From: Alphaproteobacteria bacterium
Lineage (GTDB): Bacteria > Pseudomonadota > Alphaproteobacteria > Bin95
Length of the DNA: 64,000 nt
NCBI GenBank assembly: GCA_965205265.1
Contig: CBDBGH010000003.1
Span: 4,832,001-4,896,000, forward strand
Direction of reading: 5' to 3'
Position numbers and translations under genes: made by a program. The notes under the pieces were generated by a model. It had not been told where the DNA came from. It searched no databases and was given only the letters and a program-made list of their open reading frames with translations. Shown piece by piece: positions 39,586 through 60,638 of this stretch; within the stretch, counting starts at the first letter, position 1, and each line of letters starts with the position of its first letter.

Positions 39586-40437
39586 ATGCTTCCCAAAGCC
39601 ACAGCGGAACAGGTGGTGGACCAGTACGAAAGGGGGCGCCGTAATTTCAGGCGTCTGGACTTCTCCGGAGAGGATTTCACGCGGGATTACCTGGAAGGCG
39701 TCGATTTCAGCGAATGCCGACTGGACGGCGCAACCTTGATAGGGGCCCATCTCGTTGGCTGCCGGTTTACCGGGGCGAGGGCCTTGCGTGCGGACTTCAC
39801 CGGCGCCCGCCTGACGAGTTCCAATCTCGACCGGCTCGTTGCCGGAGGCGCGGACTTCTCGACAGCCGATCTGAACGGCTGCTCTATCAATGACGCCTCC
39901 CTGCGCCGTGCCGACTTTCTCGGCGCCCAACTGCAGGACGCCTCGCTCCGCTCGCTCAACGCCCCCGGCGCCGACTTTACCGGCGCCCGCCTCGAACGGG
40001 CCGATCTGACCGATGCAATGCTGCACCGGTGCCTCTTCCGGGAGGTCCTTCTCTACGAAACGAAAATGCTGGCCGTCGAGGCGAACGGGGCGGATTTCAG
40101 CGGCGCGTCGGTCTGGAGGACGGATTTCGGCATGGCGCAGCTCGTGCGCTGCGATTTCCAGGACGCAACAAGCTGGAAAGCCCATTTCCGGGATGCCCAG
40201 ACGGCCAACCACGGAGCCCCGAATTTCCGCGGCACCTTCATCAACCACAGCATTCTGAGCAACGCGGTCTTCCGCGACGCGGATTTCTCGGAGGCCGTCA
40301 TCCTGCATTCGGATTTCTCCGGGGCCGACCTGCGCGGGGCCCTGTTCGACGATGTCACCATCGAACATGCCGGCATGGAGGGAAGCCTGCGTGGGCCTTC
40401 GGAGCCTCATGAAGCGGGCGTGCCCGATCCCGGCTGA
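39586..40437 (+). CDS. Pentapeptide repeat protein 1
   Basis: A(D/N)(L/F)xx repeats; N-cap QVVDQYERGRRNF; ends VPDPG. Confidence 0.9.
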   Translation: MLPKATAEQVVDQYERGRRNFRRLDFSGEDFTRDYLEGVDFSECRLDGATLIGAHLVGCRFTGARALRADFTGARLTSSNLDRLVAGGADFSTADLNGCSINDASLRRADFLGAQLQDASLRSLNAPGADFTGARLERADLTDAMLHRCLFREVLLYETKMLAVEANGADFSGASVWRTDFGMAQLVRCDFQDATSWKAHFRDAQTANHGAPNFRGTFINHSILSNAVFRDADFSEAVILHSDFSGADLRGALFDDVTIEHAGMEGSLRGPSEPHEAGVPDPG

Positions 40438-40822
40438 CCGCCGGGCGCCCGGGCTCCGGTTCTGGCCGCTTGCGCTTCTGTGGCTGCCGGCCGGGGTGGC
40501 GGCAACGGCGCTGGTCCGCTTCGGAGCGGACGGCCGGGCAGAGGGAGATCCCGGGACGGGACTTGCGGCAATACCGGTGATGCTGGGGTCCCTGCTGCCG
40601 CTCGCGCCTTGCGGCCTGCCGCTGGCGCTCGGGTGCCGCCAGCTTTGGCGGCTCGGCTATCGAGCCGCCGCCTGGGTAGCCGGCTTCGGGCTCGGCGCGG
40701 TCACCGTTGCGGCCGCGCTGCCGGCAGGACTGCTCGGGCCCGTCATGATCGCGGTCCATGCGGCGACGCTCAGTGTGCCGGTGTGGATCGCCTGCGTCTG
40801 GATCATCGTCCGCCGGAAGTGA
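40352..40822 (+). CDS. Hypothetical membrane protein
   Basis: About four TM segments; start uncertain. Confidence 0.5.
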   Translation: MSPSNMPAWREACVGLRSLMKRACPIPADRRAPGLRFWPLALLWLPAGVAATALVRFGADGRAEGDPGTGLAAIPVMLGSLLPLAPCGLPLALGCRQLWRLGYRAAAWVAGFGLGAVTVAAALPAGLLGPVMIAVHAATLSVPVWIACVWIIVRRK

Positions 40823-40898
40823 GCCCGAGCCCGGGGCCCGCTTCGGCCGGGAACAATATCCGCCCCGAGCGCACCGACCGATTTCTCTCCGCCTTCCG

Positions 40899-40945
40899 GT
40901 TATCCGATTGCCGCCAAAAGCGGATTGTCAGGACAATCCGGCTGG
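40899..40945. promoter_or_regulatory. Tandem boxes site 3 (three boxes)
   Basis: GTTATCCGATTGC 40899, AAAAGCGGATTGT 40916, ACAATCCGGCTGG 40933. Confidence 0.6.
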
Positions 40946-41025
40946 GGCTGTTTCCCGATTTCACGGCCTCCCTCCATACTTCCGGCGACCACGGGACATC
41001 CGACAACCGGAAGGCCGCAAAGGCG

Positions 41026-41880
41026 ATGCACGCACCAGCCTCCAGAGTGGACGAAATACTCGACCGCCTGAACCGTCAGGCCCACCGTTCATTCCGGGGT
41101 TTCGACCTCACTGGCCTGGATTTCGGCGACGCGCATCTCGCCGGCATAGACCTGACCGACGCCAGGCTCGACGGCGCGGACTTCTCGGGCGCCGATCTCA
41201 CCGGGGCCACCCTGGCCAACGCCTCGGCAGCCGACGCCCGCTTTATCGGCGCCAGGATGGAAGGGGGCGACCTGAGCGGCATCAACGCTTGCGGCTCAAA
41301 TTTCAGGGAGGCAGTCCTGACTGCCGCAAACCTCTTTCAGGCTCGACTGAAGCGGGCCTGCTTCGAGAACGCCCGGCTGGACCAGGCCTCGCTCGTCTGT
41401 GCCGATGCCGCGGGCGCGGACTTCTCCTTTGCCCATCTCAGGGGGGCCGTTCTGGCCGAAGCCGGGTTGGACCGCTGCTCCTTCAACACCGCCGACCTCA
41501 GGGAGGCCCGGCTTACGGCAATCCAGGCCAGGGGCGCGGATTTTCACGCCGCCTCGATCTGGAGGGCCGATTTCGCTCTCGCGCAGCTCGTACAGTGTTC
41601 ATTCACATCCGCAACGACCCGGAACGAGGATATCCTCCCCTCCGGTCCCCAGGCCCACGGCGCGGACTTCCGGGGGACGGTCATCAACCACTCCACATTG
41701 ATAAACGCGGACCTGCGCGGCGCGGGCTTCGTCGAGAGCTTCATCCTCCATTCGAGCCTGGTGGCCGCCGACCTGCGCGGCGCCGTGTTCGACGACACGA
41801 CGATCGAGAACACGGACATGGAACACGCCCTGAAGGGCCCGTTCGGGACAGAGCCTGCGGACGTGCCGGACCTCGGATGA
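41026..41880 (+). CDS. Pentapeptide repeat protein 2 (close paralog of PRP1)
   Basis: Repeats; shares SIWRADF...AQLV...FRGTVINHS block with PRP1; ends VPDLG. Confidence 0.9.
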   Translation: MHAPASRVDEILDRLNRQAHRSFRGFDLTGLDFGDAHLAGIDLTDARLDGADFSGADLTGATLANASAADARFIGARMEGGDLSGINACGSNFREAVLTAANLFQARLKRACFENARLDQASLVCADAAGADFSFAHLRGAVLAEAGLDRCSFNTADLREARLTAIQARGADFHAASIWRADFALAQLVQCSFTSATTRNEDILPSGPQAHGADFRGTVINHSTLINADLRGAGFVESFILHSSLVAADLRGAVFDDTTIENTDMEHALKGPFGTEPADVPDLG

Positions 41881-42053: not shown

Positions 42054-42629
42054 ATGAATAACCCGGACAATATCCCGACGGTCATCGCGCCCGCGCGCAT
42101 CTGGGCTGCGATGCATGTGCTGGTGGCACAGATATGCGAGGAATCGGAAAAGGTGCCCCCCGAGATGCATGACAGGGCCCGCGACATCCTCGACGAACTT
42201 CTTGACGATCACGTCCCCGACCCCCTCTGCCCGGGTTGGATATGGACCGACCGGCTTCGCCGCGCCGAACGGTTTACCCACTGGGACGACGCCGATGAGG
42301 CTCGCGACAGCATGCCGAACGCAACCTACGAGCCCCCGGTGCCGCATATCGACGAGACGCCGGAAGGCGAGTGGCTGGTGTGGACCTTCGTCCACGGGCG
42401 GCGCGTCTGGATTGCGCCGGACCTGAACCGGAAGCTCGAGTTGCTCCAGGCCACCATGGAGAAAGCCGGAGCCGATGTTGCCCAGGCCCGGCGCCTTCTT
42501 CAGGACTCGGAAAACCGTTACCGCCATGCCTGCGACGCTGTCGCCGTGCAAACGGCTGCGAACGCGAGACTGGCGGCCGAAGAAACCGCTGTGGGGGACA
42601 ATCCTGACGACGACCTGCCGGCGCCGTGA
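42054..42629 (+). CDS. Hypothetical protein
   Basis: ORF downstream of boxes; coiled-coil C-terminus; ends DDDLPAP. Confidence 0.55.
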   Translation: MNNPDNIPTVIAPARIWAAMHVLVAQICEESEKVPPEMHDRARDILDELLDDHVPDPLCPGWIWTDRLRRAERFTHWDDADEARDSMPNATYEPPVPHIDETPEGEWLVWTFVHGRRVWIAPDLNRKLELLQATMEKAGADVAQARRLLQDSENRYRHACDAVAVQTAANARLAAEETAVGDNPDDDLPAP

Positions 42630-42642: not shown

Positions 42643-44517
42643 CTAGTCCATGTAGCTGCGGAGCTTCCGCGACCTGGACGGGTGCTTGAGCTTCCGGAGC
42701 GCCTTTGCCTCGATCTGCCGGATGCGCTCGCGGGTGACGCCGAAGGTCTGTCCGACTTCCTCCAGCGTGTGATCGCTCTGCATGCCGATCCCGAAACGCA
42801 TCCGGACAATACGCTCCTCCCGGGCCGTCAAGGTCGCCAGCGCCCCGGTCGTGCTGACCCGCAGGGAGCTCTGGATGGCTACATCGACAGGCTGGACCGC
42901 GTTGACGTCCTCGATCATGTCGCCGAGCATGCCACCGTCGTTTTCGGCGCCGATCGGCATCTCCAGGCTCACGGGTTCCTTCGCCACCTTCATCGCCTTG
43001 CGGACCCGGTCGACCGGCATCTGAAGGCGCTCCGCCAGCTCCTCGTAGCTCGGCTCCCGGCCGAGTTCGTGAACCATCTGCTGGCTGACGCGCCTCACCT
43101 TGGTGATGGACTCCACCATGTGGACCGGCACCCGGATGGTGCGGGCCTGGTCGGCGATCGACCGCGTGATGGCCTGACGGATCCACCAGGTGGCGTAGGT
43201 CGAGAACTTGTAGCCGCGGCGGTACTCGAACTTGTCCACCGCCTTCATCAGTCCGATATTGCCTTCCTGGATCAGGTCCAGGAATTGCAGGCCGCGATTG
43301 GTGTATTTCTTCGCGATCGAGATCACCAGCCTGAGATTGGCCTCGACCATCTCCTTCTTCGCCCGGGCCGCGTCACGGTCGCCTGCCTTGACCAGGACAA
43401 GAACCTCCCGGAACTCGTCGGGCAGCATGCCGGTTTCCTGGCACAGCTCGCCGAAACGCTGGCGGGCCGCACGGATGTCCTCGCGGAAACGGCTCGAGAA
43501 CGCCTTCCAGTCTTTCCGCTGACAGATGCTGCGCATCCAGCCACGGTCGAGTTCACGTCCCCGCCAGCCCTCGAGGAAGACCTCTCGCGGCATCTTCGCG
43601 CGCCGCGCGCAGCGCAGAAGGCGACTTTCCAGGCCGACGATCTCGCGCTGCGCATCGTACAGCGCGTCGCGCATCTCCTCGACGCGAACATCGAGCAGCC
43701 TGAGTTCCCGCATGGCCAGCGCCATTTCCTGCGTGATCTCACGCCAGGTGCGCAACTGGCGCGAGGAAGGCCCTTCGCCGCCGCACGCCTTCTCGAAGCG
43801 CATGGCGCGGATCCTGGCGAGCCTCGCCTCGAGGCGCGCAATCCGGTCCATGACCTCCAGGACGTGCGGTTTCAATTCCGTTTCGGTAGCCGCCAGGGAA
43901 CGGACCGCGTTGTCGTTCGCCCCATCCCCGTCCGGCATGTCGTCCGACATGTCGTCATCGTCGGCGGCGTCCGCGGATTTCCCGAAAACCTGGACCCAGG
44001 TGGCATCGAGACTCACCACCTCGCGCAGCAGCATCTCGTTGGCGTTCAGACGGTCCCTGAACCGGAGAATCCCGGCAATCGCCAGCGGGGTCGCGCAAAT
44101 CGCGCGGACCATCTTGGTCCGCCCGGCCTCGATCCGCTTGGCGACAGCGATCTCTCCCTCACGGGAGAGCAGTTCGACTTCGCCCATTTCTCGCATATAG
44201 AGGCGGACCGGGTCATCCGTCCGTGACGCCGTCTCGTCATCGACGTTTCCGGACCGCTTGACTTCCGCCAGACCTGACTCCGAAGAGGTCCCGGATATGC
44301 CGTCCTCGTCCTCGACAACCTCGATCCCCAGCTCGGCCAGGGCGGTCATCATGTCCTCGATCTGGTCGGACGATACGCGGTCCGAGGGCAGGGCGGCATT
44401 CAATTCCCCATAGGAGACCTGACCGGTCTCCCTGCCTTTCTCCACCAAGGCTTTCATGGCCTCTTCCGGAGACACGCCAGGCTCCCGATCCTGTACGCGT
44501 TCCGTTGCATTCGCCAT
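42643..44517 (-). CDS. rpoD: RNA polymerase primary-type sigma factor RpoD
   Basis: Region 1.1, [81 protein letters not shown]. Confidence 0.97.
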
Positions 44518-44646: not shown

Positions 44647-45345
44647 ATGAGCGAGCCGCACACCGACATGGAGGGAACCCCGGCACCCCGGGAAAACCTG
44701 AGCGCAGAGCGCGTCATTGAACTCTACAAGGAGGGACGACGCGATTTCAGCGGACTTGACCTTTCCTTCCGGTCCTTCGGCGAGGCCGTGCTGCCGGGCA
44801 TAGACCTGAGCGACACCAACCTCCAGAATTCCAGTTTCCGCGGAGCGTACCTCCGCCGGGCCGATTTCACCGAGGCATGGACGATCGGGGCGGATTTTTC
44901 GTTCGCCGACCTGCGGGAGGCCGATTTCACCGATTCCGGCGCCAACGCCCTGGACGGGGCACAATGCGAGGGGGCCCGCTTCTTCGGCTGCCATCTCTGC
45001 GATACGACGGTAGCCGGAGCCACCTTCGCCGGCGCGACTTTCCGCGGCGCCACCATCGAGGGAGTGTCCTTCGACGGACACGACCTGTCGGGTATCGACT
45101 TCTCCCGTGGCCATATCGTCAACACCCGCTTCACAAGAGCCAATCTTCACAAGGCGAAATTCCACGACACCCGGATCATCCAGTGCGGTTTCGACGATGC
45201 GGACATGGGGCTCGCCAACATGCGGGGAAGCTCGCTGGAAGACTGCGCCCTGACGCCCGGGCAGATCGATCAGCTCGCCGAAGGACCGGAGGTGGTGAGG
45301 ACCGGTCAGGACAGCCGGTTACCGGAACCGCCGCCCGAACAGTGA
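44647..45345 (+). CDS. Pentapeptide repeat protein 3
   Basis: N-cap RVIELYKEGRRDF; ends PEPPPEQ. Confidence 0.9.
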   Translation: MSEPHTDMEGTPAPRENLSAERVIELYKEGRRDFSGLDLSFRSFGEAVLPGIDLSDTNLQNSSFRGAYLRRADFTEAWTIGADFSFADLREADFTDSGANALDGAQCEGARFFGCHLCDTTVAGATFAGATFRGATIEGVSFDGHDLSGIDFSRGHIVNTRFTRANLHKAKFHDTRIIQCGFDDADMGLANMRGSSLEDCALTPGQIDQLAEGPEVVRTGQDSRLPEPPPEQ

Positions 45346-45359: not shown

Positions 45360-46463
45360 ATGTCCCGCGATGAACTGCTCCGGCTCTATGCCGCCGGAGA
45401 GCGGGATTTCCGCAATGCCGACTTCTCGGGCGAAGATCTCTCGGACCTGGACCTCGGCGAAGCCCGGTTCCGGTTTGCAAAATTCCGAGGAACCACCCTT
45501 ATCAGCACAATACTTCGTCGAACCGACATAAGAGGGGCGGATTTCACCGGCGCGCTCATCGTTGGCATCGTGTTTGCGAGAGCCAATCTCGGTCAGGCGC
45601 GTTTCAACGACGCTCGAATAGCTGGCTGCGACTTCCATGGCGCCCTAATGGAACAAACAGACCTGCAAGGGGTGCGCCTCGAGAGCTGCGGGTTCCTTGG
45701 CGCCGGGATGGAACTGGTCAACATGAAAGGGGCCAACCTCGACCGCTGCGCGATCTTGGAAGAACAGCTGGCGGGTCTGACGGGCCAGCCTGACACCATC
45801 ATCCCGGATAAGGGCCTCCCGAAACGCTCTGCGTGCAGGAAGCCCCGCTTCTCTGACGTAGAACATATGGCCCGCGGCGAGCTCGCCTGCCGCTATGCGG
45901 CCGGGGAGCGCCGTTTCGAGGGTCTCGATTTCTCGGACGAGGACCTCTCGGGCCTGGACCTCAGCCATGCTTATTTCGATTTCTCGATCTTCCGCGGAAG
46001 CTCTCTCAGGAAGACGCGACTGCACCGGGCGCGTCTTGCAGACGCGGACTTGGCCGAATCCGACCTCCGGGAAGCGGACCTTTCGGAAGCAGGCATGGAA
46101 TGGGTCATGCTTGACGGTGCCGATCTCCGGCAGGCAATTCTCGATCGCACCAACCCGCGCTATGCCTCCATGGCCCGGGCGCGCTTGGCCGGGGCATCGC
46201 TGCGATATGCGGATATGACGGGGGCCCTCTGTTTCGGGGCGGATTTCACCGGCGCCGATCTCTCCCATACCTTCATCCATGAAGCGGACTTCCGCGAAAC
46301 CCACATCGCCGCCACCCTGTTCGACGGCGCCGATATCCGGAAGAGCCGTTTTCACGGCGCCGCTCCGGCAAAGGCCGGCATGCCCGGCGCCGGGGTCGAC
46401 GACGAAAGCAAGTCCACGATGAACCCGGCCGCGAGTGAGCCGGACGTCCCGGCCCCTGGGTAA
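45360..46463 (+). CDS. Pentapeptide repeat protein 4 (two tandem modules)
   Basis: ELLRLYAAGERDF, then a second ELACRYAAGERRF module; ends DVPAPG. Confidence 0.9.
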   Translation: MSRDELLRLYAAGERDFRNADFSGEDLSDLDLGEARFRFAKFRGTTLISTILRRTDIRGADFTGALIVGIVFARANLGQARFNDARIAGCDFHGALMEQTDLQGVRLESCGFLGAGMELVNMKGANLDRCAILEEQLAGLTGQPDTIIPDKGLPKRSACRKPRFSDVEHMARGELACRYAAGERRFEGLDFSDEDLSGLDLSHAYFDFSIFRGSSLRKTRLHRARLADADLAESDLREADLSEAGMEWVMLDGADLRQAILDRTNPRYASMARARLAGASLRYADMTGALCFGADFTGADLSHTFIHEADFRETHIAATLFDGADIRKSRFHGAAPAKAGMPGAGVDDESKSTMNPAASEPDVPAPG

Positions 46464-46662: not shown

Positions 46663-47478
46663 ATGCCTCAAGCCGCCAGAGAGGCCCGCAAGCTGACGGC
46701 CGTCGACGTCCTGGCCCGTTACAGGAACGGGGAGCGTGACTTTTCGGAGTGTGCCCTGGCCGGCGCCGATTTCGCCGGCGCAGATCTTCGCGGCATCGAC
46801 TTCACGGAGGCAGATCTGCGCGGGGCGTCCTTCACGGGAGCCCGGCTCGACAATGCAAAGTTCAACAACGCCGCCCTGTTTCATGCCAAATTCTACGGAG
46901 CCCGGCTCGAAGGGGCGGAATTCATCTTCGCCTCGATGCATGAAGCGGACATGAGCCACGCGGAGTGTCCGCATGCGCGGTTCGACAGGGCCGACATGAC
47001 CAAGGTTCAGGCCGGACATGCCGATTTCACGGAGGCGTCCTTCCTGCGCGCCAATCTCGTGCGGGCCGCCATGAGTCAGGCGATCCTGGTGCGCGCCAAT
47101 CTCCACGGCGCGAAATTGGCGGGAGCCGACTTCTCGCAAGCAAACATGCAGGAGGCATGTATCGACAGGGCCGTCGCCAACGGCGCGGACTGCATCGGGG
47201 CCGACATGACCGGAGCCAGTCTCCGCATGGCGAACTTCGACGATTCCGGCCTGTCCGGAGTTAATCTCACCGGCGCGGACTGCAGGGACGCCTCCTTCGA
47301 CAATGCCGGCATGGAAGGGGCCATACTCGATCATGGCCTCTTCGACGGCGCCGAATTCACCTGGACGCAGATGGACGGGGTTTCCGCGAGAGGGGCCGAC
47401 CTCTCGGGCGCCGACACCAGCGACGCCACCCTGGACCTGTCGGCAACGGCCGGCACGACCGGCACGCCGGCTCCCTGA
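46663..47478 (+). CDS. Pentapeptide repeat protein 5
   Basis: DVLARYRNGERDF; ends GTPAP. Start chosen by RBS; ORF open from 46435. Confidence 0.9.
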   Translation: MPQAAREARKLTAVDVLARYRNGERDFSECALAGADFAGADLRGIDFTEADLRGASFTGARLDNAKFNNAALFHAKFYGARLEGAEFIFASMHEADMSHAECPHARFDRADMTKVQAGHADFTEASFLRANLVRAAMSQAILVRANLHGAKLAGADFSQANMQEACIDRAVANGADCIGADMTGASLRMANFDDSGLSGVNLTGADCRDASFDNAGMEGAILDHGLFDGAEFTWTQMDGVSARGADLSGADTSDATLDLSATAGTTGTPAP

Positions 47479-47483
47479 ACCGG

Positions 47484-52393: not shown

Positions 52394-53486
52394 ACCACGG
52401 GAACGACAGGGACGCCAAGTGCTCCGCGGCCTCGCGCTCCCGTTCATTCCCCCGGCTGCCCATATCCAGGAATGTGCGCAGGGCATCGGTGCAGACAATG
52501 CCCGGAGCGGGCACCGCAACATGCAGGAAGACATCGCTCCTCTCATCCGGCACCGCAACCTCGAGGGCGCCGTAGCCTTCCTGCAAGCGCACAAGCCCCG
52601 GCAGGCCATCGAGCAGCTCCAGACCCTGCCGGTCCGCATACAATGTGGCGTGCATGCCCCGCAGGAAGGGGGCAATCCACTGGGCGGCGGAATCCCGGCA
52701 ACGGACAATCCTGGGCCGCCCGGACTCCGCATTGAGAGGAATGCCGCGCAGCACGGCGGCAAGGGGTTCCCCGGGCGCCGGACTGTAGAAGGCCCTCATG
52801 CCGATTGCCGGCTCCCAGGCCACACTCCAGGCCTGCAACAGGCGGGCAGGTTCCGTAAGGACAAACCCTTCCTTCCGCCGCTCTCCCCAGGCCCGGGTTC
52901 CCAGCTCCCGACAGATCGCACTCACATGCCCGACGCTGACACCGGCCCGGTCGGCCAGCGCCACGACCCGCCAGGGGCGGCCGGGCTCCGAAAGCAATAC
53001 TCGCAGCACCATTCCGGCCCGGGCGCCGAAAAGAGACTTCAGCCTCCTCGAAGGGCTTTTCGCGGGCTGGCCGGGAACCTGTATGTCCATATGCATACCT
53101 CCGCCGGAAATATGGGCATTCCCGAGCCTGTCGATCCAGGAAATGCCCAACTCCGTGCACGCGGCCCTGGCTTTCGGCGACAGGAAGGGAGCGCAGATCA
53201 CCGGGACCGGATTGACACCACCGCCACCACCACTCGCTGCGGCGCCAACCTTGCCGAGGACGCCCATATAGCTCCGGAGCCGGTGGGCGGCCGCTTTCAC
53301 GAACCGGGGCGCGCCGTCTTCCTCGTTGCTGACGACGATCATGCAGGACTTCCCGTTCACGGTTGCCGGAATACAGCCCGAAATTCCGTAGAGAGCCAGG
53401 TCGCGGCCATCTCGGACCGCATCCCCGGTCTCGACAGCCCAGGCCTTCCCCAGGACTGCCAGAATCATCTCGACCGCGTCAGCCAT
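52368..53486 (-). CDS. AbiEi-like (type IV TA antitoxin-like) HTH protein
   Basis: APFLSPKARAAC...WIDRLGNAHI, VLRVLL...LADRAGVSVGHVS, LLQAW, TFLDM...EREREAAEHL. Confidence 0.75.
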   Translation of the reverse strand: MADAVEMILAVLGKAWAVETGDAVRDGRDLALYGISGCIPATVNGKSCMIVVSNEEDGAPRFVKAAAHRLRSYMGVLGKVGAAASGGGGGVNPVPVICAPFLSPKARAACTELGISWIDRLGNAHISGGGMHMDIQVPGQPAKSPSRRLKSLFGARAGMVLRVLLSEPGRPWRVVALADRAGVSVGHVSAICRELGTRAWGERRKEGFVLTEPARLLQAWSVAWEPAIGMRAFYSPAPGEPLAAVLRGIPLNAESGRPRIVRCRDSAAQWIAPFLRGMHATLYADRQGLELLDGLPGLVRLQEGYGALEVAVPDERSDVFLHVAVPAPGIVCTDALRTFLDMGSRGNEREREAAEHLASLSFPWFSPSAGAS

Positions 53487-53550
53487 CGCGGGGTCGTCCC
53501 GATATAGAGTGCAGTATTGCGGGCAGCTCCCGCATTCCGGCCCATATATC

Positions 53551-53580
53551 ATAATCCGATTGCCAACGCAATCTGATTGC
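53551..53580. promoter_or_regulatory. Tandem boxes site 6
   Basis: ATAATCCGATTGC 53551, GCAATCTGATTGC 53568, between divergent genes. Confidence 0.7.
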
Positions 53581-54085: not shown

Positions 54086-54379
54086 ATGCACACCGAACAT
54101 GCGGGCGTGAGCGCCCCTATCCATGCGTGGAACCATGGAGTTGAGATCGATGCGGGGTCTTTCCGTCAGGCCCGTAATCTCTCGGCCCTGCCGTTCATCC
54201 ACCACCATGTGGCGCTCATGCCGGATTCGCATCCTGCGATCAGCTCAACGGTCGGGTCCGCAATCCCGACCCCGGGCGCCGTGATTCCGGCAGCCGTCGG
54301 TGTCGATATCGAATGCGGGACAGTGGCCGTGCGCCTGGACGGCGTCGGCGCCGGGGTAACACGAAGCCCGGCAGGCTGA
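54086..54379 (+). pseudogene. rtcB: RtcB RNA ligase N-terminal fragment
   Basis: LPFIHHHVALMPDSH...TVGSAIPT.GAVIPAAVGVDIECG; only 97 aa. Confidence 0.8.
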
Positions 54380-54402: not shown

Positions 54403-55041
54403 ATGGCCTACAGTTCATACGGAGGCTATGCCTTCCGCAATGGGGAACGCTGCGTTGAGCGCAGCGATGCCGTCATTACCGACCGGGCGGAGACCGTGCC
54501 GGGCATGTGGCCCGGCTTCGCCTTCGCGGCCCAGGGCCTCTCCCCGGAAGAAGCCCACAAGGAGATATGGAAGCAGAAAAACCCGCACGGCCATGTCGTG
54601 CTCGGCGACGGCCCGCTCCATGTCGGCCTCTACAAGCAGAGCGACGTCTGGGCATGGTTCGACGGCAAGCAACTCGACCTGCTGAAGCACGGGATCGACC
54701 TGCCCGAAGAGATTATCAGGACCGAGTGGTGGAGCGGTGCGCCCTGCGAGCCGCATATCGACCCGACCGACTGGGCCGAGCGCGGAGGCTTCGAGCCCGT
54801 CCGGTTCGACTTCCCCGACGGCAGCCGACTCGATGTCGTGTGGACCGTGCAGGACAACCACTATGTCTATGCCCGTCTTGAGCACCCGGATGGCACGGTC
54901 TGGGCGGGCTGGTCGGGATATGGCGTGGGCGCCGGCCTGGAGGACTGCGGATGGGGATTCTCCACGGAGGAACGCAACCAAGGGCTCGTGCGGATCTGGC
55001 CGGACGCCATCAAGGAGCCGGTGCCAGAACCGGGCCCCTGA
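54403..55041 (+). CDS. Hypothetical protein
   Basis: RBS AGGAG; aromatic-rich globular ORF; ends EPVPEPGP. Confidence 0.7.
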   Translation: MAYSSYGGYAFRNGERCVERSDAVITDRAETVPGMWPGFAFAAQGLSPEEAHKEIWKQKNPHGHVVLGDGPLHVGLYKQSDVWAWFDGKQLDLLKHGIDLPEEIIRTEWWSGAPCEPHIDPTDWAERGGFEPVRFDFPDGSRLDVVWTVQDNHYVYARLEHPDGTVWAGWSGYGVGAGLEDCGWGFSTEERNQGLVRIWPDAIKEPVPEPGP

Positions 55042-55134
55042 CACCACATCCAGCCAATCGCGCCGGCCCGGGACTTGGACTTTTCACGGTGGCGGAGCAT
55101 CGTCTCTTGCACCCGTTCCCGCAGGAGAGCTTTC

Positions 55135-55934
55135 ATGGATTTCAGGACGGTCACCGCTCCGGCCCTGCGCGATTGGCTGGACGCGGGCGGGGACCCGGAC
55201 GTCGAAGATGGCAACGCGGGGGCGGCCATTCACCAGGCGGCCGGTGCCGGGAACGTCGCGGCCCTGCGCGTCTTGCTCGCGGCCGGGGCCAGCCCGGACT
55301 CCCGCGATGGCTCCGACTCCACGCCGTTGCACCTGGCGGCGCGCGAAGGGCATGCCGATGCCGTGAAAACGCTTCTGGCCGCCGGAGCCGACGTTGAATC
55401 CCAGGACAGGGGGATTACCAGACGCCCTTGCATTGGGCCGCGTTGCACGACCCAAACGCGGAATCCCTGGAAGCGCTGCGTGAAGCCGGCGCCGATATCG
55501 AGGCCCAGGACAGTCTGGGCCAGACGCCGCTGCACATGGCGGCAAGCAGGGGGAATGCGTCGGCTATCGGGTTTCTCCTTGCCGCCGGCGCCGATGTGAA
55601 CGCCCGGCAGAAGGGAAGCGCCTTTACGGCTCTGCACGAAGCGGCCAGCTGGGGCGACCCGGAGGCGTTGCGCGCCCTGCTCGATGCCGGCGCCGACGTG
55701 AATGCCCGGGAGGTCTGGAGCAATTCCATCCCGCTGCATTTCGCCGTCCAGAACGTCCGGGGCGCAACCGGGGTTGTAGCAGCCCTCCTGGAAGCCGGTG
55801 CCGACCTCTCGGTGCGGAACAACCTGGGCAAGACGGCGCTCGAAATGGCTGTCCTGCACGGCACGTCCGAAATCGCTGGCCTTGTCGGCGCCGCAGCAGG
55901 ACAGGACTGGACCGCCCCGGAACCGGGCGCCTGA
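55135..55934 (+). pseudogene. Ankyrin repeat protein, frameshifted at G5 tract 55409-55413
   Basis: TPLHLAAREGH, TPLHMAASRGN, TALHEAASWG, IPLHFAV, LLAAGADVN; one extra G joins the two frames. Confidence 0.85.
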
Positions 55935-55967
55935 CGGCGAGCCATTGTGAAGGACGGCGACAACACC

Positions 55968-56618
55968 ATGAAGATCGAGGACGTCATTGAGCAGTACGGG
56001 CAGGGCCGGCGCGATTTCCGTGGCATCAGCCTGTTCGAGCAAAGGGAGCACAGCCTTGTCCTGCCAGGGGCGGACTTCTCCGGGGCGGACCTCCGCCTCT
56101 GCGAATTCTGGCAAGGCGATTTCACGGGAGCCGATTTCTCCGGCGCCTGGATGGGCAATATCAACCTGGTGGGGTGTAAACTGCAGGGGGCGGTTTTCGC
56201 GAAGGCGGAACTGTTCGAAGCCTGTTTCAGCGAGGCCGATGCCACCGGCGCGAATTTCGCCGAAGCGGGGATCCACGGCATCGACGCAACGCACGGCATA
56301 TTCAGGGATGCGCTGCTGACCGATGTCGATGCCCATGGCGGCAACTTCACCGGCGCCGCCATGAATGGCGCCGACCTGTCCGGAGGACGGTTCACAAGAA
56401 CGAACCTGTCGGGAGCCGATCTATCCCGGGCGGTCGCAAGGAACGCGGATTTTTCAGACGCTCTCCTTTATGGAGCAAAGCTCCGGAATGCGGATTTCGA
56501 GGGAACGGACATGCTGCGCCTGCGCATTTCCGGCACGGATTTGGACGAGACCCGCGTCCCGCCGGCGCGGATGACCATCCGGGAGCCGGAGAGCGGTCAC
56601 GGCCCCGAAGAGCCCTGA
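55968..56618 (+). CDS. Pentapeptide repeat protein 9
   Basis: DVIEQYGQGRRDF; ends GPEEP. Confidence 0.9.
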   Translation: MKIEDVIEQYGQGRRDFRGISLFEQREHSLVLPGADFSGADLRLCEFWQGDFTGADFSGAWMGNINLVGCKLQGAVFAKAELFEACFSEADATGANFAEAGIHGIDATHGIFRDALLTDVDAHGGNFTGAAMNGADLSGGRFTRTNLSGADLSRAVARNADFSDALLYGAKLRNADFEGTDMLRLRISGTDLDETRVPPARMTIREPESGHGPEEP

Positions 56619-56689: not shown

Positions 56690-57529
56690 ATGGCTGAAAA
56701 GAAGGGCGGGACTGTTTCCGTGGAAGACCTTCTGCGGCGCTACGCGGCCGGCGAGCGCGATTTCAGGGAGATCAGTCTGTCGGGCGTTACAGGCGACAGT
56801 CTGGCAGGACAGACCCTCGCCGGAGCCGATTTCCGCGGCGCATTTCTGTGGCTGGTGGATTTCACCGGGGCGGATCTCACGAGCTGCTCCTTCGACGGGG
56901 CGGAACTGACCCAAGCTAAATTCACCGCCGCCCGCATGGCCGAGTGCAGTTTCTACGGCACCATCATGCGGTCAACCGACTTCACCAGGGCCCACCTGGA
57001 CGAGGCCCGGTTTTCGCTCACGGACGCCATACGGGCAGACTTCACGGAAGCCAGCCTCTTCGGCGCCCGGGCGACAAGGACGGATTTCAGGGAATGCAAA
57101 TTCTCCCGCGCGCGCCTTGTCGGGAGTGTCCTCGATCAGTGCAGTTTCGAGGAGGCCGACTTCCATTCCGCCTCGCTGGGCGATGCCGTCATGCACTGGG
57201 CCTCGATCCATCGGGCCTCGTTCGCTCACGCGGTCATGCTCGACACGGATATGCTGTATGCCTCGGCCATGGCGCCGGACGACAACGATGGGGCCTGCGA
57301 GGCGAATTTCGACCACGCCGATCTCCGGGGCGCCAATCTGAGCGAGACCACGTTGCACGGCGCGAGCTTCCGGCACGCCAATCTCTTGGACGCGCGGGTC
57401 GAGAAAGCGCTGATGGACGACTGCGACTTCACCGCCGCCTGTCTGGACGGCGTGGATTTCAGCGCCGCCCGCAGCGCCGACGGTGCAGGATTACCGGAAC
57501 CGCAGGCGGCGGACTCGCCGCAGGTCTGA
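56690..57529 (+). CDS. Pentapeptide repeat protein 10
   Basis: DLLRRYAAGERDF; acidic loop PDDNDGACE; ends DSPQV. Confidence 0.9.
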   Translation: MAEKKGGTVSVEDLLRRYAAGERDFREISLSGVTGDSLAGQTLAGADFRGAFLWLVDFTGADLTSCSFDGAELTQAKFTAARMAECSFYGTIMRSTDFTRAHLDEARFSLTDAIRADFTEASLFGARATRTDFRECKFSRARLVGSVLDQCSFEEADFHSASLGDAVMHWASIHRASFAHAVMLDTDMLYASAMAPDDNDGACEANFDHADLRGANLSETTLHGASFRHANLLDARVEKALMDDCDFTAACLDGVDFSAARSADGAGLPEPQAADSPQV

Positions 57530-57556
57530 TCCGGGGTGAAGAAGGAACGGAACGCC

Positions 57557-58425
57557 ATGGCCGAACGAAGCATCGTTTCCTCCGTCGAGGAGCTGAAGGC
57601 GCGCTACGCCGCCGGCGAGCGCGATTTCCGCGATGCGGATCTGCCCGCCGCGGATCTGCGGGGCGCCGTGCTGCCCGATGCCGACTTTACCGGTGCCGAT
57701 CTCCGGAACGCGGTGTTCGACGGGGCCGACCTCACCGGATGCCGGTTCGACGGGGCCGACATCGACGACGGTTCCTTTGTCGAGAGCCGGATGGCCGGGG
57801 CCAGTTTCACCGGGGCAAGCCTTTTCCGCGGCACCTTTGACGAGGCCGATCTCAGCCGTTCCAGAATGACGCGGTGCGAAGCGTTTTTCGCGCACTTCAC
57901 CGGGACCGACATGACCGGGGTGAAGGCCCGTTCCGCTCAATTCAGGAACGCCCGGATGCAAGGGGCGCTCCTCGACGAGGCGGACCTCACCGGATGCGAC
58001 CTGTGCAAGGCCGAAATGTCCGAGGCAGCCTGAAGCGGGCGAACCTGAAATCCTGTCGGGTCTTCAAGGCCGACTTCAGTGCGGCCAATCTGCGTCAGGC
58101 CAGGCTGGGGCTGATGTCCTCGGCCGACCCGGACCTCCCGGAAGACGAGCGGGACTACGAGGTGGATTTCTCGGGAGCCGTTCTTGAAGGCGCGGATCTC
58201 CGCGATTCGAATCTCCCCGGCAGCAACTTCCGGCAGGCAAATTTCCGGAATGCCGACATGCGCGAGGCGAATGTCGACAACGCCTGTTTCGACGGGGCCG
58301 TCCTGACCGGAGCACAGTTCGTCACCGAAGGGGCATGGACGCCGGACGCGGATTTCAGCGAGGCGATCGATGTTCCGGAAGGCCTGCTGGAGGGCGCGGA
58401 AGCCAGCGCGGCCGCCGGCCCCTGA
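57557..58425 (+). pseudogene. Pentapeptide repeat protein 11, frameshift near 58030
   Basis: ELKARYAAGERDF; stop at 58033, repeats resume in another frame to 58425; ends AAAGP. Confidence 0.85.
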
Positions 58426-58457
58426 CGCCCCGCGCCGAGCCGGAGGAGCAGAACGCC

Positions 58458-59327
58458 ATGGCCGAACGAAGCATCGTTTCCTCCGTCGAGGAGCTGAAGG
58501 CGCGCTACGCCGCCGGCGAGCGCAATTTCCGCAATGCCGAGCTGGAGGGAGCCGACCTGAGAGGCCTGGTGCTCAAGGACGCCGACTTCGGCGGCGCCAT
58601 TCTCCGGAGAACCAGGGGCGACGGATCGGACCTCACCGGCTGCCGCCTTGATGGAGCCGACCTCACCGGCGCCTCCTTTCCTGCCGCCCGGCTGGAGGAC
58701 AGCTCCCTGCATGGAGCCATGCTCAATTTCGCGACCTTCACGGAAGCCAATTTCGACCGCTGCGAGATGGTTCGGGTTTCCGCGGTCGAATGCGGTTTCG
58801 GCAAGGCGGGCATGGCCGGGATACGGGCTCCGTGCGGCGATTTCCGCCGGTCGAATTTCGCCGGGGCCAATCTGCCCGAGGCCTACCTTCCCGACAGCGA
58901 TCTCTGCGAGGCCAACTTCGCGGGATGCGGAATGGCTCGGGCCAACCTGGAATCCTGTTCGGCCTACAAGACCAACTTCTCGGCGGCCTGCCTGGACCGG
59001 GCCCGCATGTATGTTTTCACGGTTCGCGACCCGGAAAGCCCCGAAGAGGCATCGGAATACGAGGCGGATTTTTCGGACGCGACCCTTCGGGAATCCGACA
59101 TCACCAACGCGGATATCCAAGGTGCGGATTTCTCGCGCGCGGACCTGGGGGACGCCGATATGACCGGGGCATTTGTGTTCTCGTGCAATTTCACCGGCGC
59201 GAACTGCGCCGGCACCAGGTTCGACAAATCTCTGCCGCCCGACCTGTGCGATTTCACGGGCGCCCTTAACGTCCCTGACGCCGTCCTGGAGGCCAACAGG
59301 GGCACCGGCGGCCCCAACGGGCCATAG
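58458..59327 (+). CDS. Pentapeptide repeat protein 12
   Basis: ELKARYAAGERNF; loop DPESPEEASEYE; ends GPNGP. Confidence 0.9.
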   Translation: MAERSIVSSVEELKARYAAGERNFRNAELEGADLRGLVLKDADFGGAILRRTRGDGSDLTGCRLDGADLTGASFPAARLEDSSLHGAMLNFATFTEANFDRCEMVRVSAVECGFGKAGMAGIRAPCGDFRRSNFAGANLPEAYLPDSDLCEANFAGCGMARANLESCSAYKTNFSAACLDRARMYVFTVRDPESPEEASEYEADFSDATLRESDITNADIQGADFSRADLGDADMTGAFVFSCNFTGANCAGTRFDKSLPPDLCDFTGALNVPDAVLEANRGTGGPNGP

Positions 59328-59356
59328 GCGGGCAATGGAGGGGGAGGAACGGACCG

Positions 59357-59755
59357 ATGCAGATCATGCCTGCCGAGAATAGGGCCGGCGTGCCCGAGGA
59401 CGATGGCTATCCGCCGGAAGGCACGCCGGAAACCGCGCTCGTGATCGTCTGGAGCGGGGAGGATTACGCCTTCCACATCATGGCCCATACCGGCCGGTAC
59501 TTCCACGGCACGGTTGAGGTCGCCGGCTTCAATGGTGAGGAGTCCGGCATGGAGGGCGTGCCGGAAGAGCCGGGCTTCTACGTCATGGAAAACGGCCGGG
59601 TCTCGTCGCATCGCGACCGGGAAACCGGCATTGTCGAGGAGGTTCTCATCCACGGCGATTGGCGAAAGGCGCGTCTGGCGGACTTCGACCGCTTCGGCAT
59701 CGAATGTCCCCTGGACCTCTCGCCGGAAGCGGAGGAACCCGGAATCAGCCCCTGA
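59357..59755 (+). CDS. Acidic hypothetical protein
   Basis: RBS GGAGG; ends EEPGISP. Confidence 0.65.
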   Translation: MQIMPAENRAGVPEDDGYPPEGTPETALVIVWSGEDYAFHIMAHTGRYFHGTVEVAGFNGEESGMEGVPEEPGFYVMENGRVSSHRDRETGIVEEVLIHGDWRKARLADFDRFGIECPLDLSPEAEEPGISP

Positions 59756-59789
59756 TGCAAGTCGGGACTCAAATAGGGAAACCCGGAAT

Positions 59790-60638
59790 ATGAGCACACG
59801 AGAGATCGTCACGTCCGTCGAGGACCTCCGTCGCCGCTACGCCGCCGGCGAACGCGACTTCCGCGATGCCCGGCTGGAAGGGGCCGATCTGCAGTGCCTC
59901 GATCTGACCGGTTCCGACTTTTCCGGTGCCGATCTGCGCGCGGCGCAACTCGATGACGCCTGGCTGTCTGACTGCAATTTCTCGGGCGCCGACATGGAGT
60001 CCGTATCGGCCCCCCGGACGATCATGAGGGACAGCCGCTTCTATGGCGCCATCCTGAACGGGGGACATTTCGCGAGCGCACAGCTTGCGGGGGCGCAGTT
60101 CACAAGAGTGTCGGCCCAAAACTGCCATTTCACGAATGCCGATCTGAGCGGCATATCCGCAAGATGTGCTGACTTCCGGCATTGTCACTTCGTGAAGGCC
60201 AGTCTCACCAAGGCTCTCCTCGATATGGGCGAGTTCGAGAACGCCGTTTTCACCGGCGCCGATCTGGAAGGCGCCTCCCTGGCATGGGCCGCCATCTACC
60301 AGGCCCATTTCGAGGATGCCGACATGCGCGAAGTGCAGCTGCGGGGCGCCTGTTCGCGCGACCCGGAAGACGACGAGACCTTCGAGGCCTGCTTCGCCAG
60401 CGCTGACCTGCGCAAGGCCGGGCTGACGGACGTCATCCTGCACGAGTCCGATTTCCGGGGAGCCGACATGCGCGAGGCGGACCTGTGCGGTGCGCTGATG
60501 AGCGGCTCGAAATTCGAGGGGGCCGACATCACCGGAATCAGGTTCGACGACGTGTCGGGCTACGAGATCGACCTGCGCGGCGCCATCGGGATCCCGGATG
60601 AATGGCGCCCCTCCGGCGAAAGCGGGCCCGCGGCATAG
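59790..60638 (+). CDS. Pentapeptide repeat protein 13
   Basis: DLRRRYAAGERDF; loop DPEDDETFE; ends SGPAA. Confidence 0.9.
   Translation: MSTREIVTSVEDLRRRYAAGERDFRDARLEGADLQCLDLTGSDFSGADLRAAQLDDAWLSDCNFSGADMESVSAPRTIMRDSRFYGAILNGGHFASAQLAGAQFTRVSAQNCHFTNADLSGISARCADFRHCHFVKASLTKALLDMGEFENAVFTGADLEGASLAWAAIYQAHFEDADMREVQLRGACSRDPEDDETFEACFASADLRKAGLTDVILHESDFRGADMREADLCGALMSGSKFEGADITGIRFDDVSGYEIDLRGAIGIPDEWRPSGESGPAA

Follow-up and report, generated by a model that had tools for sequence, protein, structure and literature searches.

Thirteen pentapeptide-repeat genes and a shared proline-rich C-terminal tail in an accessory region of an alphaproteobacterial genome

The window, a 64,000-nucleotide stretch of DNA, had been annotated in a first pass as carrying 13 stand-alone pentapeptide-repeat protein (PRP) genes with 14 modules, 12 of the genes on the forward strand, between positions 39586 and 60638, and Pfam bore out this count with PF00805 matches in 13 of 13 genes (E values 2e-18 to 7e-53). 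Gene 1 (39586..40437, 283 aa, pI 5.0, E 6e-35, cap QVVDQYERGRRNF, ending in GVPDPG) is 45% identical to gene 2 (41026..41880, about 284 aa, E 2e-33, degenerate cap, ending in DVPDLG); both are on the forward strand, as are gene 3 (44647..45345, 232 aa, E 3e-26, ending in RLPEPPPEQ), gene 4 (45360..46463, 367 aa, E 3e-39, ending in DVPAPG), gene 5 (46663..47478, 271 aa, E 6e-47, ending in GTPAP) and gene 6 (47517..48416, 299 aa, E 1e-49, ending in SVPGPG). The only PRP gene of the window on the reverse strand is gene 7 (50290..51357, 355 aa, E 1e-45, ending in EEEPAAAP). It is followed, again on the forward strand, by gene 8 (51530..52393, 287 aa, E 7e-53), whose end MMRPPTG fails the tail rule given below, gene 9 (55947..56618, 216-223 aa, E 3e-32, ending in GHGPEEP), gene 10 (56690..57529, 279 aa, E 2e-38, ending in GLPEPQAADSPQV), gene 11 (57536..58425), gene 12 (58458..59327, 289 aa, E 1e-38, ending in GGPNGP) and gene 13 (P13; 59790..60638, 282 aa, net charge -23, E 9e-40), whose structure was modeled. 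Full-length frames are kept by 11 of these genes. The two irregular ones are gene 4, in which two capped modules are fused in a single frame, and gene 11, which is 54% identical to gene 12 and is split by a frameshift into 57536-58033 and 58003-58425, both pieces matching PF00805; the area of this frameshift (57593-58480) is identical, with 0 differences, in contigs of two other studies. The proteins are 216-367 aa long and acidic, with a pI of 4.4-5.0 for most and a net charge down to -23.

Among the neighboring genes, the earlier naming of an rpoD, a C5 methyltransferase, an ankyrin gene and remnants of RtcB and AlkB held up, and that of an 'AbiEi-like' gene found no support: the frame at 52368..53552 (reverse strand, 372-394 aa) matched 0 Pfam and 0 PADLOC families. 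The full-length rpoD paralogue (42643..44517, reverse strand, 624 aa) encodes a divergent second primary-type sigma factor with Sigma-70 regions 1.1, 1.2, NCR, 2, 3 and 4, and is 61% identical to the copy beside dnaG (C3:3348556-3350418) and 47-55% identical to its best matches in other genomes. The C5 cytosine DNA methyltransferase (48593..49774, forward strand; PF00145 E 1e-28, PADLOC MTase_II E 3e-41) is one for which we identified no partner nuclease. Three forward-strand genes encode proteins that match no Pfam or PADLOC family and end in the shared tail: 42054..42629 (191 aa, ending in DDLPAP), 54403..55041 (212 aa, ending in EPVPEPGP), which has paralogues at two other C3 loci, one at C3:4948516-4949157 and a two-piece one at C3:4594089-4594627, and 59357..59755 (132 aa, ending in EEPGISP). 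The ankyrin-repeat gene (55075..55934, forward strand) is frame-split into 55075-55599 and 55428-55934, both of which match Ank families, and has a tail ending in TAPEPGA; the sequence around its frameshift (54987-57579) is identical, with 0 differences, in contigs from two studies. RtcB is reduced to an N-terminal remnant (54086..54379, forward strand, 97 aa) that aligns with positions 1-58 of the 426-position PF01139 profile (E 1e-15), and the AlkB-like 2OG-Fe(II) oxygenase to a C-terminal remnant cut by an insertion sequence (IS) (60660..60923, reverse strand) that aligns with positions 111-194 of the 194-position PF13532 profile (E 3e-12). The array is flanked on the left by an IS copy at 36750..38665 (forward strand) with a DDE transposase (36907-38562, PF01609) and 17-nt terminal inverted repeats, and on the right by an identical, inverted copy at 60940..62855 (reverse strand), the 1916-nt arms being 100% complementary. 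The outer flanks of the two copies have no target duplication in common and composite transposition is thus unsupported. C3 carries at least 55 full-length copies of this element, 53 of them identical, and further fragments.

The N-terminal cap had been noted at the start of almost all the genes. Its motif, [YH]xxGxRxF, is indeed present in 13 of 14 modules, gene 2 being the degenerate one, but it is a generic HetL/Alr5209-type cap that also occurs in unrelated bacteria and is no mark of this array. The absence of an obvious signal peptide from the 13 PRPs, which had likewise been noted, agrees with the hydropathy of their first 45 residues, in which the highest 12-residue Kyte-Doolittle mean was at most 0.97 in all but one protein; in the single exception (1.86) the hydrophobic stretch sits beyond the cap. 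PRPs fold as right-handed quadrilateral β-helices, and the 13 proteins are predicted to take this form, with a HetL-type cap helix, 10-15 acidic coils and a short disordered C-terminal tail. The AF2 model of P13 (pLDDT 92.7) has a cap helix at residues 10-18 and about 50 rungs, and in place of a C-terminal helix it shows a predicted disordered tail, residues 273-282 having no regular structure (block pLDDT 61 and 37, with 278-282 below 50). The top Foldseek matches of the model were HetL (3du1, first), Np275/276, QnrB1, MfpA and AlbG, the last three at a probability of 1.0, and NleL was also among the matches. In sequence, 0 of the 10 PRPs tested reached the family cut-offs for Qnr (best score 90 bits against 240), MfpA (66 against 360) or PipB2 (90.9 against 354), and NCBIfam similarity to PipB2 and PipB was below threshold. 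HetL scores among the same 10 proteins rose to 137.7 bits, below the cut-off, in an alignment that begins at profile position 1 and thus includes the cap, and the named family nearest to its cut-off was Alr5209 (gene 8, 122.8 bits against 125).

The array is real, but its unit is not the 21 kb first proposed: it is part of a family whose roughly 44 loci extend across some 0.4 Mb. A phmmer search of the 5.70-Mb genome found 50 PRP ORFs, 48 of them within C3:4.87-5.26 Mb and 2 outside; since that number predicts about 0.2 per 21 kb, we reject chance clustering. The genome holds at least 153 PF00805 matches compared with 3-10 in each of the 16 same-genus genomes searched. On this evidence the family appears to be lineage-specific and confined to an accessory chromosome region of roughly 0.45 Mb (C3:4.87-5.32 Mb). 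Identity to the best paralogue has a median of 34% and a maximum of 54%, and at most loci the frame is full-length, the cap is conserved and codon usage resembles that of the host; outside the window two PRP genes are IS-interrupted and two more abut an IS, with at least one other gene split as well. The accessory region also holds 79 of the 81 Ank_2 matches of the genome, genes for Fic, Macro-NADAR and HipA-like proteins, about 28 extra tRNAs, a second rpoD, dnaG, dnaB, parE and RNR gene, ParA, its own topoisomerase IA and Cas9. A relaxase-bearing F-type transfer cluster occupies C3:4.711-4.7335 Mb. The parE paralogue shares 78% identity with its chromosomal counterpart and lies ~770 nt downstream of one PRP gene on the same strand. 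The locus had been put forward as an undescribed system, and the literature searched holds no description of this setting.

Many proteins of the region share a proline-rich, acidic C-terminus. Under a rule of at least two prolines and no Lys or Arg in the last eight residues, tails were found in 111 of 370 region proteins (about 30%) and 186 of 4170 elsewhere (odds ratio 9.2, p 5e-50), with a region boundary that was set after the data had been seen; boundary-free 100-kb bins gave the same pattern. The motif P.P occurs in the last five residues of 80 of 370 region proteins against 70 of 4170 elsewhere, and proline, at 5.7% and 5.6% of whole proteins, makes up 18% of the last five residues in the region and 7% elsewhere. 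Asp and Glu are raised at positions -10 to -6 and Lys and Arg are depleted over the last ten residues. We found no such tail in plasmids or in two other F-type element regions, and no DNA repeat at the stop codons. Within the window the tail is carried by 9 of the 13 PRPs and by four non-PRP neighbors, and across the family 27 of 47 PRP gene models conform to the rule. Twenty tail-bearing proteins, picked by hand among the longer non-PRP proteins, comprised seven ankyrin proteins, one each of Fic, Macro+NADAR, HipA-like, nucleotidyltransferase, Uma2 and DUF3085, one AAA protein below cut-off, one weak DUF6878 match and five without a family. The tail may be an export tag.

Secretion genes of Dot/Icm type lie in and near the same region. 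It encodes homologues of DotL/IcmO (E 1e-108 to PDB 6sz9_A), of the adjoining DotM/IcmP (E 1e-11) and of DotA (E 1e-18), and IcmL, IcmK, IcmE and a VirB4-like ATPase are encoded 110-160 kb upstream of it; IcmL/DotI exceeds its NCBIfam cut-off, and DotH/IcmK and the C-terminal part of DotG were also found. IcmS, IcmW, DotN, DotB, DotC and DotD were absent from the neighboring ORFs compared with PDB and Pfam, and the type VI secretion protein VipB was not found. Homologues of DotL, DotM, DotA and IcmL/K/E also occur in I-type conjugation systems. Because of these shared homologues and the several Dot/Icm components not found, the genes do not establish an effector-translocating system. Of 400 other genomes of this class run through the same search, 28 had DotL relatives, and these 28 were all 1.1-4.1 Mb in size. 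Five alphaproteobacterial genomes with type IVB systems had 17-29 PF00805 repeat matches each, concentrated in a few long ORFs, and no expansion, and in one genome (G030) the IcmL/K/E module is present and the PRPs have no tail.

The reading that we favor, tentatively and at somewhat less than an even chance, is that the PRPs of the window are substrates of the type IVB system, with their C-terminal tails serving as tags. The Lys/Arg-free tail would be recognized by the DotL-DotM coupling complex and the PRP would then be delivered into a target cell, either a eukaryotic host or another bacterium, where its rigid acidic β-helix could bind a protein or mimic nucleic acid. The first-pass annotation had described stand-alone, diverged, acidic PRPs, as we find them, and had weighed two roles; of these, host-directed effectors is the one most strengthened, because the tail is shared, DotL, DotM and DotA are encoded in the region, and ankyrin, Fic and Macro proteins are encoded alongside. 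We counted in favor of maintenance that the paralogues are diverged yet mostly intact while IS copies are 100% identical. Counted on the other side were the richness of the tail in proline, unlike the Glu-rich E-block of Legionella, and its presence on part of the PRPs, together with the lack of a PRP expansion in the five type IVB genomes and the tail-less PRPs of G030.

The other of the two roles, a battery of intracellular DNA mimics of a giant mobile element, which would remain inside the cell or pass into recipients along with conjugating DNA, we consider unlikely. Such proteins would shield topoisomerases or modulate their activity, or serve as decoys against restriction and other defenses directed at DNA, in the manner of Qnr, MfpA and AlbG or of anti-restriction mimics. 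Their acidity and the fold matches to QnrB1, MfpA and AlbG speak for this, as do the mobile-replicon-like make-up of the region (F-type transfer with relaxase, ParA, topoisomerase IA, Cas9), the orphan C5 methylase of the window, the parE paralogue downstream of a PRP gene, and the DUF3085 and weak DUF6878 matches among tail-bearing proteins. However, the Qnr and MfpA thresholds lay beyond all PRPs tested, the PRPs match no PADLOC family, and some 44 paralogues at roughly 30% identity far exceed the need of one or two topoisomerase targets. MfpA is described as dimerizing through C-terminal helices (PMC8145042), whereas P13 is predicted to end in a disordered tail. Moreover, the tail is common to ankyrin, Fic and Macro proteins, and 'pentapeptide repeat' is absent from the anti-defense and leading-region literature searched.

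Less probable still is that the tail has nothing to do with export, serving as a stability or regulatory element, degron or solubility tail on PRPs that are intracellular scaffolds or regulators of element replication and transcription; it might shield against C-terminal proteolysis or act as a degron for an element protease such as the PDZ-M48 peptidase (C3:4752664-4753596). The short, disordered and loosely conserved character of the tail would suit this, and the gene for that peptidase adjoins the IcmL/K/E cluster; PDZ domains read C-termini. The region's own rpoD, dnaG, dnaB, parE, RNR gene and about 28 tRNAs make element-specific regulators plausible. Against this, the peptidase begins with a lipoprotein-like hydrophobic stretch (VVRSVLCLPAFLLLVSCV) and may thus not be cytoplasmic, whereas the window PRPs have no signal peptide, and the tails of ankyrin, Fic and Macro proteins are left unexplained. 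Because translation termination after a C-terminal proline is costly, the enrichment of this residue suggests that it has a specific reader.

The least probable reading sees the family as a relic in decay that now has no function, for although the region is ridden with IS copies, PRP genes are frameshifted or fused in the window and IS-interrupted or split elsewhere, and the ankyrin, RtcB and AlkB genes are damaged, 11 of 13 window genes and most loci keep frame, cap and codon usage at a median paralogue identity of 34%, the Pro- and Asp/Glu-rich, Arg-poor tail is unlike translated random GC-rich DNA, and the PRP family is old whereas the IS copies, mostly 100% identical, spread recently.

Taken as candidate type IVB substrates, the PRPs are best set beside the Dot/Icm systems of Legionella and Coxiella, with which the genome shares homologues of DotL, DotM, DotA, IcmL, IcmK and IcmE and a repertoire of many unrelated proteins, ankyrin-rich and including Fic, whose C-termini are disordered and acidic and lack basic residues. 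Legionella DotM is reported to bind acidic C-terminal effector peptides (PMC5802825). The present case differs in its alphaproteobacterial host (5.7 Mb, 68% GC), in a tail with prolines at -1 and -3, in having PRPs as the largest candidate-substrate family, and in that several components were not found and the substrates are putative. Candidate substrates and coupling proteins are here encoded together on one accessory region; the Legionella dot/icm genes are described as a single large gene cluster (PMC5802825). PipB2 and PipB of Salmonella, NleL/SopA-type proteins of E. coli and SrfD of Rickettsia likewise place β-helical pentapeptide-repeat modules in host-delivered proteins, SrfD being described as a secreted effector whose PRP domains are needed to bind host Sec61 (PMC11258249). 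These are, however, single multi-domain effectors of organisms with a type III or rvh type IV system, and differ from the stand-alone, tandem PRPs seen here, which carry a different terminal signature and score far below the PipB2 cut-off. Genomes with a Qnr/MfpA/AlbG-type gene usually carry one. With those proteins the PRPs have in common the fold, the acidic surface and, in one case, a position just upstream of a parE paralogue, but they are longer (profile lengths are 183 for MfpA and 211 for Qnr), P13 is predicted to have a disordered tail and not a helix, and the copies are many and diverged. The best sequence and fold matches are the cyanobacterial stand-alone PRPs HetL, Alr5209, Np275/276 and Rfr, from a group described as contributing 26.9% of all PRP sequences but 3.7% of PRP-carrying species (PMC8145042); unlike these, the present genes fall below the family cut-offs, come from a host that is not a cyanobacterium, and are clustered beside secretion genes in an accessory region with a shared C-terminal tail.

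The genome studied comprises 5.70 Mb in three contigs, and on its chromosome contig (CBDBGH010000003.1, hereafter C3) the window carries 13 pentapeptide-repeat protein (PRP) genes between window positions 39586 and 60638, 12 of them on the + strand. Pfam searches returned PF00805 matches for each gene that the first-pass annotation had placed in this array, with scores of 66-176 bits against a cut-off of 20.2 for all 13 genes, including both pieces of a split gene. Gene 4 (45360-46463; genes are numbered in order) encodes two capped modules in a single frame, and gene 11 is frameshift-split into 57536-58033 and 58003-58425. This frameshift is not peculiar to the present assembly, since the same sequence occurs in contigs of two other studies, in whose runs an 888-nt contig covers 57593-58480 with zero differences; the array as a whole is almost identical in other runs, with 1 SNP. 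The N-terminal cap, searched as [YH]xxGxRxF, was recovered in 13 of the 14 modules, and the reported absence of an obvious signal peptide held, with a hydrophobic N-terminus in 0 of the 13 proteins. The array PRPs are acidic (pI mostly 4.4-5.0) and share 24-54% pairwise identity. The interleaved neighbours were for the most part as first described: rpoD, a C5 methylase, an ankyrin gene (frameshift-split), an RtcB N-terminal fragment and a 2OG-Fe(II) oxygenase C-terminal fragment stood, and the assignment of an 'AbiEi-like' gene fell, with zero Pfam and zero PADLOC matches. PADLOC models gave 0 matches for nine proteins (three PRPs, five array neighbours and the HipA-N fragment at window 63593-64000), and the C5 methylase was the sole PADLOC match among the proteins submitted.

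The protein of gene 13 (window 59790-60638, 282 aa) was modelled with AF2 from aligned PRP sequences, 11 of them from the window and 2 from databases, which gave a pLDDT of 92.7, a cap helix at residues 10-18 and ~50 single-strand rungs. A right-handed quadrilateral beta-helix is thus predicted for this sole modelled member, and Foldseek returned HetL, designed solenoids, Np275/276, QnrB1, MfpA, AlbG and NleL, the top matches all being PRP structures at probability 1.0. Toward the C-terminus a 3-residue helical turn (270-272) is followed by a disordered tail: no regular structure is modelled over the last ten residues, pLDDT drops to 61 and then 37 in the closing blocks, and it is below 50 at residues 278-282; this is one model, and oligomeric state is outside its scope. 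For MfpA, sections of PMC8145042 describe a dimer mediated by a C-terminal helix, and state that only a handful of pentapeptide-repeat proteins are understood functionally. The cap proved unsuitable as a mark of the array, as ELLxRYAAGERDF also occurs in unrelated PRPs, including cyanobacterial ones, where it is internal. The top-scoring NCBIfam models were HetL and Alr5209, with alignments beginning at the first profile positions. Curated NCBIfam cut-offs for HetL, Alr5209, Qnr, MfpA, PipB2 and PipB were reached by 0 of the 10 PRPs tested, the best scores among these ten being 90.4 bits versus 240 for Qnr, 65.7 versus 360 for MfpA, 90.9 versus 354 for PipB2 and 80.7 versus 274 for PipB.

When the 13 array proteins were compared by phmmer with all stop-to-stop ORFs of at least 90 aa, 50 PRP ORFs were found genome-wide, 48 of them in C3:4.87-5.26 Mb, corresponding to ~44 loci after merging of split genes. 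PF00805 repeat matches numbered 3-10 in each of the same-genus genomes searched (16 of 16), versus at least 153 here. Best-paralogue identity within the family has a median of 34% and a maximum of 54%, and best partners often lie side by side, examples being gene 1 with gene 2, the run from gene 10 to gene 13, and six clustered genes at C3:5.237-5.244 Mb; these identity levels and neighbouring partners imply that the family is old and arose partly from local duplication. A small number of loci are broken: an insertion sequence (IS) interrupts two and lies directly against another two, and frameshifts split at least two. Outside the genome, homologues of gene 13 reached at best 37% identity and were all generic PRPs (among the 8000 candidates sharing most words, of 5.8 billion proteins), and a search with the N-terminal region gave 2 matches among 8 candidates. 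The plasmid database yielded PRP identities of at most 34% and, for the 212-aa unknown protein of the array (window 54403-55041), one match at 36%. We found no description of such PRP arrays in the literature searched. An unrelated 1.9-Mb genome of the same class (G026; GC 37%) has tandem PRP arrays of its own (loci L082, L083 and L084), with at least 12 PRP genes consecutive on one contig. The proteins of G026 share the N-terminus MGLFDKTYEIKD...ECVELAVK and the C-terminus KIANAQAMIKAAM..KQK, both unlike the ends seen here, so that its arrays look like an independent case of conserved ends around a variable beta-helix. Searches of G026, an 81% complete genome, found neither IcmL nor DotL.

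On either side of the array lies a 1916-nt IS copy, the two being identical and inverted relative to each other. C3 holds at least 55 full-length copies of this element, of which 53 are identical, as well as fragments of it; its spread is recent, the PRP family old. A composite transposon is disfavoured by the outer flanks, which have no common target duplication, by the left copy's own 93-nt perfect direct repeat (window 36657-36749 and 38665-38757), and by the at least 55 IS copies. Target duplications of IS4-type elements are ~9-12 bp, and the 93-nt repeat is much longer than these. A protein with a HipA N-terminal domain (window 63593-64000 and beyond) begins right after the right-hand IS copy. 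Other ORFs present in several copies in C3 are a pair (499+279 aa), a triple (501+261+292 aa) and two single ORFs of 426 and 505 aa.

The PRP-rich region (C3 ~4.87-5.32 Mb) has the appearance of a secondary replicon that has integrated, or of a very large mobile element. It is unusual in carrying extra tRNAs and in duplicating core genes of replication and transcription. About 28 tRNA genes lie within 6.8 kb (C3:5094894-5101696), and three further tRNAs are tRNA-Ser(GGA) at window 22691-22780, tRNA-Ile(TAT) at C3:5175977 and tRNA-Lys(CTT) at C3:5231623; the C3 total is ~87 tRNA genes, and a tmRNA lies at C3:5292698-5293015. The second copies, in C3:4874643-5256228, were compared gene by gene with their chromosomal counterparts, with identities of 61% for rpoD, 56% for dnaG, 43% for dnaB, 78% for parE, 74% for class II RNR and 47% for recQ, and a topoisomerase IA and ParA are further products of the region. 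Relatives of both rpoD genes, the window copy and the chromosomal one, come from many alphaproteobacterial groups, at identities of only 47-66%. The core-gene duplicates probably account for the 7.3% 'contamination' figure, and the mostly identical IS copies inside and outside the region suggest that it belongs to the same cell line. A prophage was set aside, with no HK97 capsid family, the one capsid family sought, anywhere in the genome. A PRP gene (C3:5105995-5106867), a 112-aa ORF and the parE paralogue are consecutive on the same strand (C3:5105995-5109631), the PRP gene lying upstream of parE; no other PRP locus has a topoisomerase gene beside it. The region also holds Cas genes (C3:5127293-5130463, 5084427-5086769 and 5045981-5052738), among them a Cas9 with RuvC_III, HNH and Cas9 alpha-helical lobe, another Cas9-like HNH protein that shares 33% identity with it, and type I Cas-like genes (GSU0054 family, Cas3-like).

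PRPs and non-PRP neighbours share like endings, such as ...VPDPG, ...LPEPPPEQ, ...VPEPGP, ...APEPGA and ...DDLPAP. We quantified this tail on 5164 genes called with an in-house gene finder that scores codon usage by log-odds (85% of the genome covered), after removal of identical proteins and of genes below 80 aa. With a region boundary chosen after inspection of the data, at least two Pro and no Lys/Arg in the last 8 residues were found in 111 of 370 proteins of C3:4.87-5.321 Mb versus 186 of 4170 elsewhere (odds ratio 9.2, p 5e-50), and P.P within the last 5 residues in 80 of 370 versus 70 of 4170 (odds ratio 16). Plain 100-kb bins across 4.8-5.3 Mb contained 20/95, 14/97, 32/96, 11/82 and 26/91 tail-bearing proteins, and other bins 0-7 each. 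The effect is confined to the C-terminus: among genes of at least 100 aa, proline makes up 5.7% of whole proteins in the region versus 5.6% elsewhere, and 18% versus 7% of the last five residues. Asp/Glu at positions -10 to -6 stand at 19.4% in the region versus 13.1% elsewhere, and Lys/Arg in the last ten residues at ~9% versus 14-15%. The plasmids lack the tail, with 5/133 proteins on one and 1/19 on the other, as do the surroundings of the two further F-type elements, with 6/114 and 6/123. A DNA repeat at gene ends was ruled out as its origin, with zero repeats at stop codons. The tail is acidic, free of basic residues and, as judged from the gene 13 model, disordered, and it is proline-rich rather than Glu-rich. 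In the window it is carried by 9 of the 13 PRPs and 4 non-PRP neighbours, and region-wide by 27 of 47 PRP gene models.

Twenty of the longer tail-bearing non-PRP genes, hand-picked rather than drawn at random, were surveyed for family membership. Seven were ankyrin-repeat proteins, and one each was assigned to Macro+NADAR, HipA-like kinase, Fic, NTP_transf_8, Uma2 and DUF3085; one more matched an AAA ATPase below cut-off, one had only a weak DUF6878 match and five had no family. A full HipA-like kinase with the tail lies at C3:5080490-5081893. Ank_2 matches show a regional distribution, with 79 of the 81 in the genome falling in C3:4.887-5.320 Mb.

Homologues of the Legionella proteins DotL, DotM and DotA, components of the type IVB (Dot/Icm) secretion system, adjoin one another inside the PRP-rich region: IcmO/DotL at C3:4924915-4928406 (E 1e-108), IcmP/DotM at C3:4928484-4930259 (E 1e-11) and DotA at C3:4933183-4935660 (E 1e-18). 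A second group at C3:4.757-4.770 Mb comprises IcmL/DotI (191 bits, cut-off 175), DotH/IcmK, the TrbI part of DotG/IcmE, which was found as its C-terminal part, and a VirB4-like ATPase. An F-type transfer cluster that looks complete is located further upstream (C3:4.711-4.7335 Mb) and comprises TraC, TraN, TraH, TraG_N, a coupling protein and a TrwC relaxase. DotB, DotC, DotD, DotN, IcmS and IcmW were absent from the neighbouring ORFs compared with PDB and Pfam; a PDB search with 7 further ORFs beside both gene groups gave no Dot/Icm match and an fn3 domain only, and two of these flanking ORFs yielded no usable lead in the ESM Atlas. The components found here (DotL, DotM, DotA, IcmL/K/E) are also common to I-type conjugation systems. 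Among 401 sampled genomes of the class, the present one and the unpublished genome G064 included, IcmL occurs in 31 and DotL relatives in 29. The other DotL holders are all genomes of 1.1-4.1 Mb, and IcmL is also present in two genomes of ~5 Mb (G030 and G214). A PRP expansion as a general companion of type IVB systems was rejected, none being seen in five genomes with such a system or in G030.

Residues 134-208 of the 1162-aa DotL/IcmO homologue match gp41-1 and DnaB-type inteins (E 9e-7), which suggests an intein inside the secretion coupling ATPase. Beside the IcmL/K/E cluster lies an M48 metallopeptidase with a PDZ domain (C3:4752664-4753596), whose hydrophobic N-terminus is read as lipoprotein-like; it is possibly a reader of protein C-termini. 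Passages of PMC5802825 describe Legionella DotM as a platform that binds acidic C-terminal effector peptides. A co-fold pairing the DotM homologue (residues 245-450) with the C-terminal 55 residues of the gene 10 PRP scored 0.00, which counts neither for nor against binding.

From sequence, the best-supported reading is that the PRPs may be part of a large type IVB substrate repertoire tagged by the acidic proline-rich tail, which we advance tentatively as falling slightly short of an even chance. It is weakened by a tail that is proline-rich and not an E-block, by its presence on part of the PRP family only, by the several Dot/Icm components not found together with the sharing of the others by I-type conjugation, and by genomes that have a type IVB system without a PRP expansion. 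Secreted PRP proteins on record include Rickettsia SrfD and cREM-4, as far as excerpts of PMC11258249 and PMC11077975 describe them. That the PRPs are instead DNA mimics or anti-defence proteins, a proposal to which the one PRP gene just upstream of the parE paralogue gives a positional lead, appears unlikely to us. Type VI secretion (VipB not found in the genome), a VirB4-type type IV system (VirB4 PF03135 not found) and a pentapeptide link to DotG, whose repeats are a different 10-residue motif in the parts of bioRxiv 10.1101/2023.03.22.533729 that treat them, were rejected.

Extending the reading of the PRPs as type IVB substrates gives a composite picture that is possible and, taken jointly, rather doubtful. 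A large-genome, high-GC alphaproteobacterium would harbour a quasi-autonomous integrated replicon of 0.45-0.63 Mb with its own sigma factor, replisome paralogues, tRNA set and Dot/Icm-like system. More than 100 substrates would bear a proline-rich acidic translocation tail of a kind not described before ('PxP-COOH'), and the largest family among them would be ~44 diversified stand-alone PRP beta-helices, each evolved to bind or mimic a different recipient-cell target. The ~44 diverged PRPs in one genome form a natural set for the study of PRP function, and position and C-terminal signature link them with ankyrin, Fic and Macro proteins as well as with coupling proteins of the Dot/Icm type. This offers a directly testable hypothesis for the whole class of stand-alone PRPs, as exported binders or mimics, and if the tail is a signal, a simple sequence rule would list the organism's whole substrate set. 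A new kind of type IVB signal outside Legionellales is thereby suggested. The type IVB signal of Legionella is reportedly the Glu-rich E-block; it and the tail described here are both acidic, whereas the latter is proline-rich.
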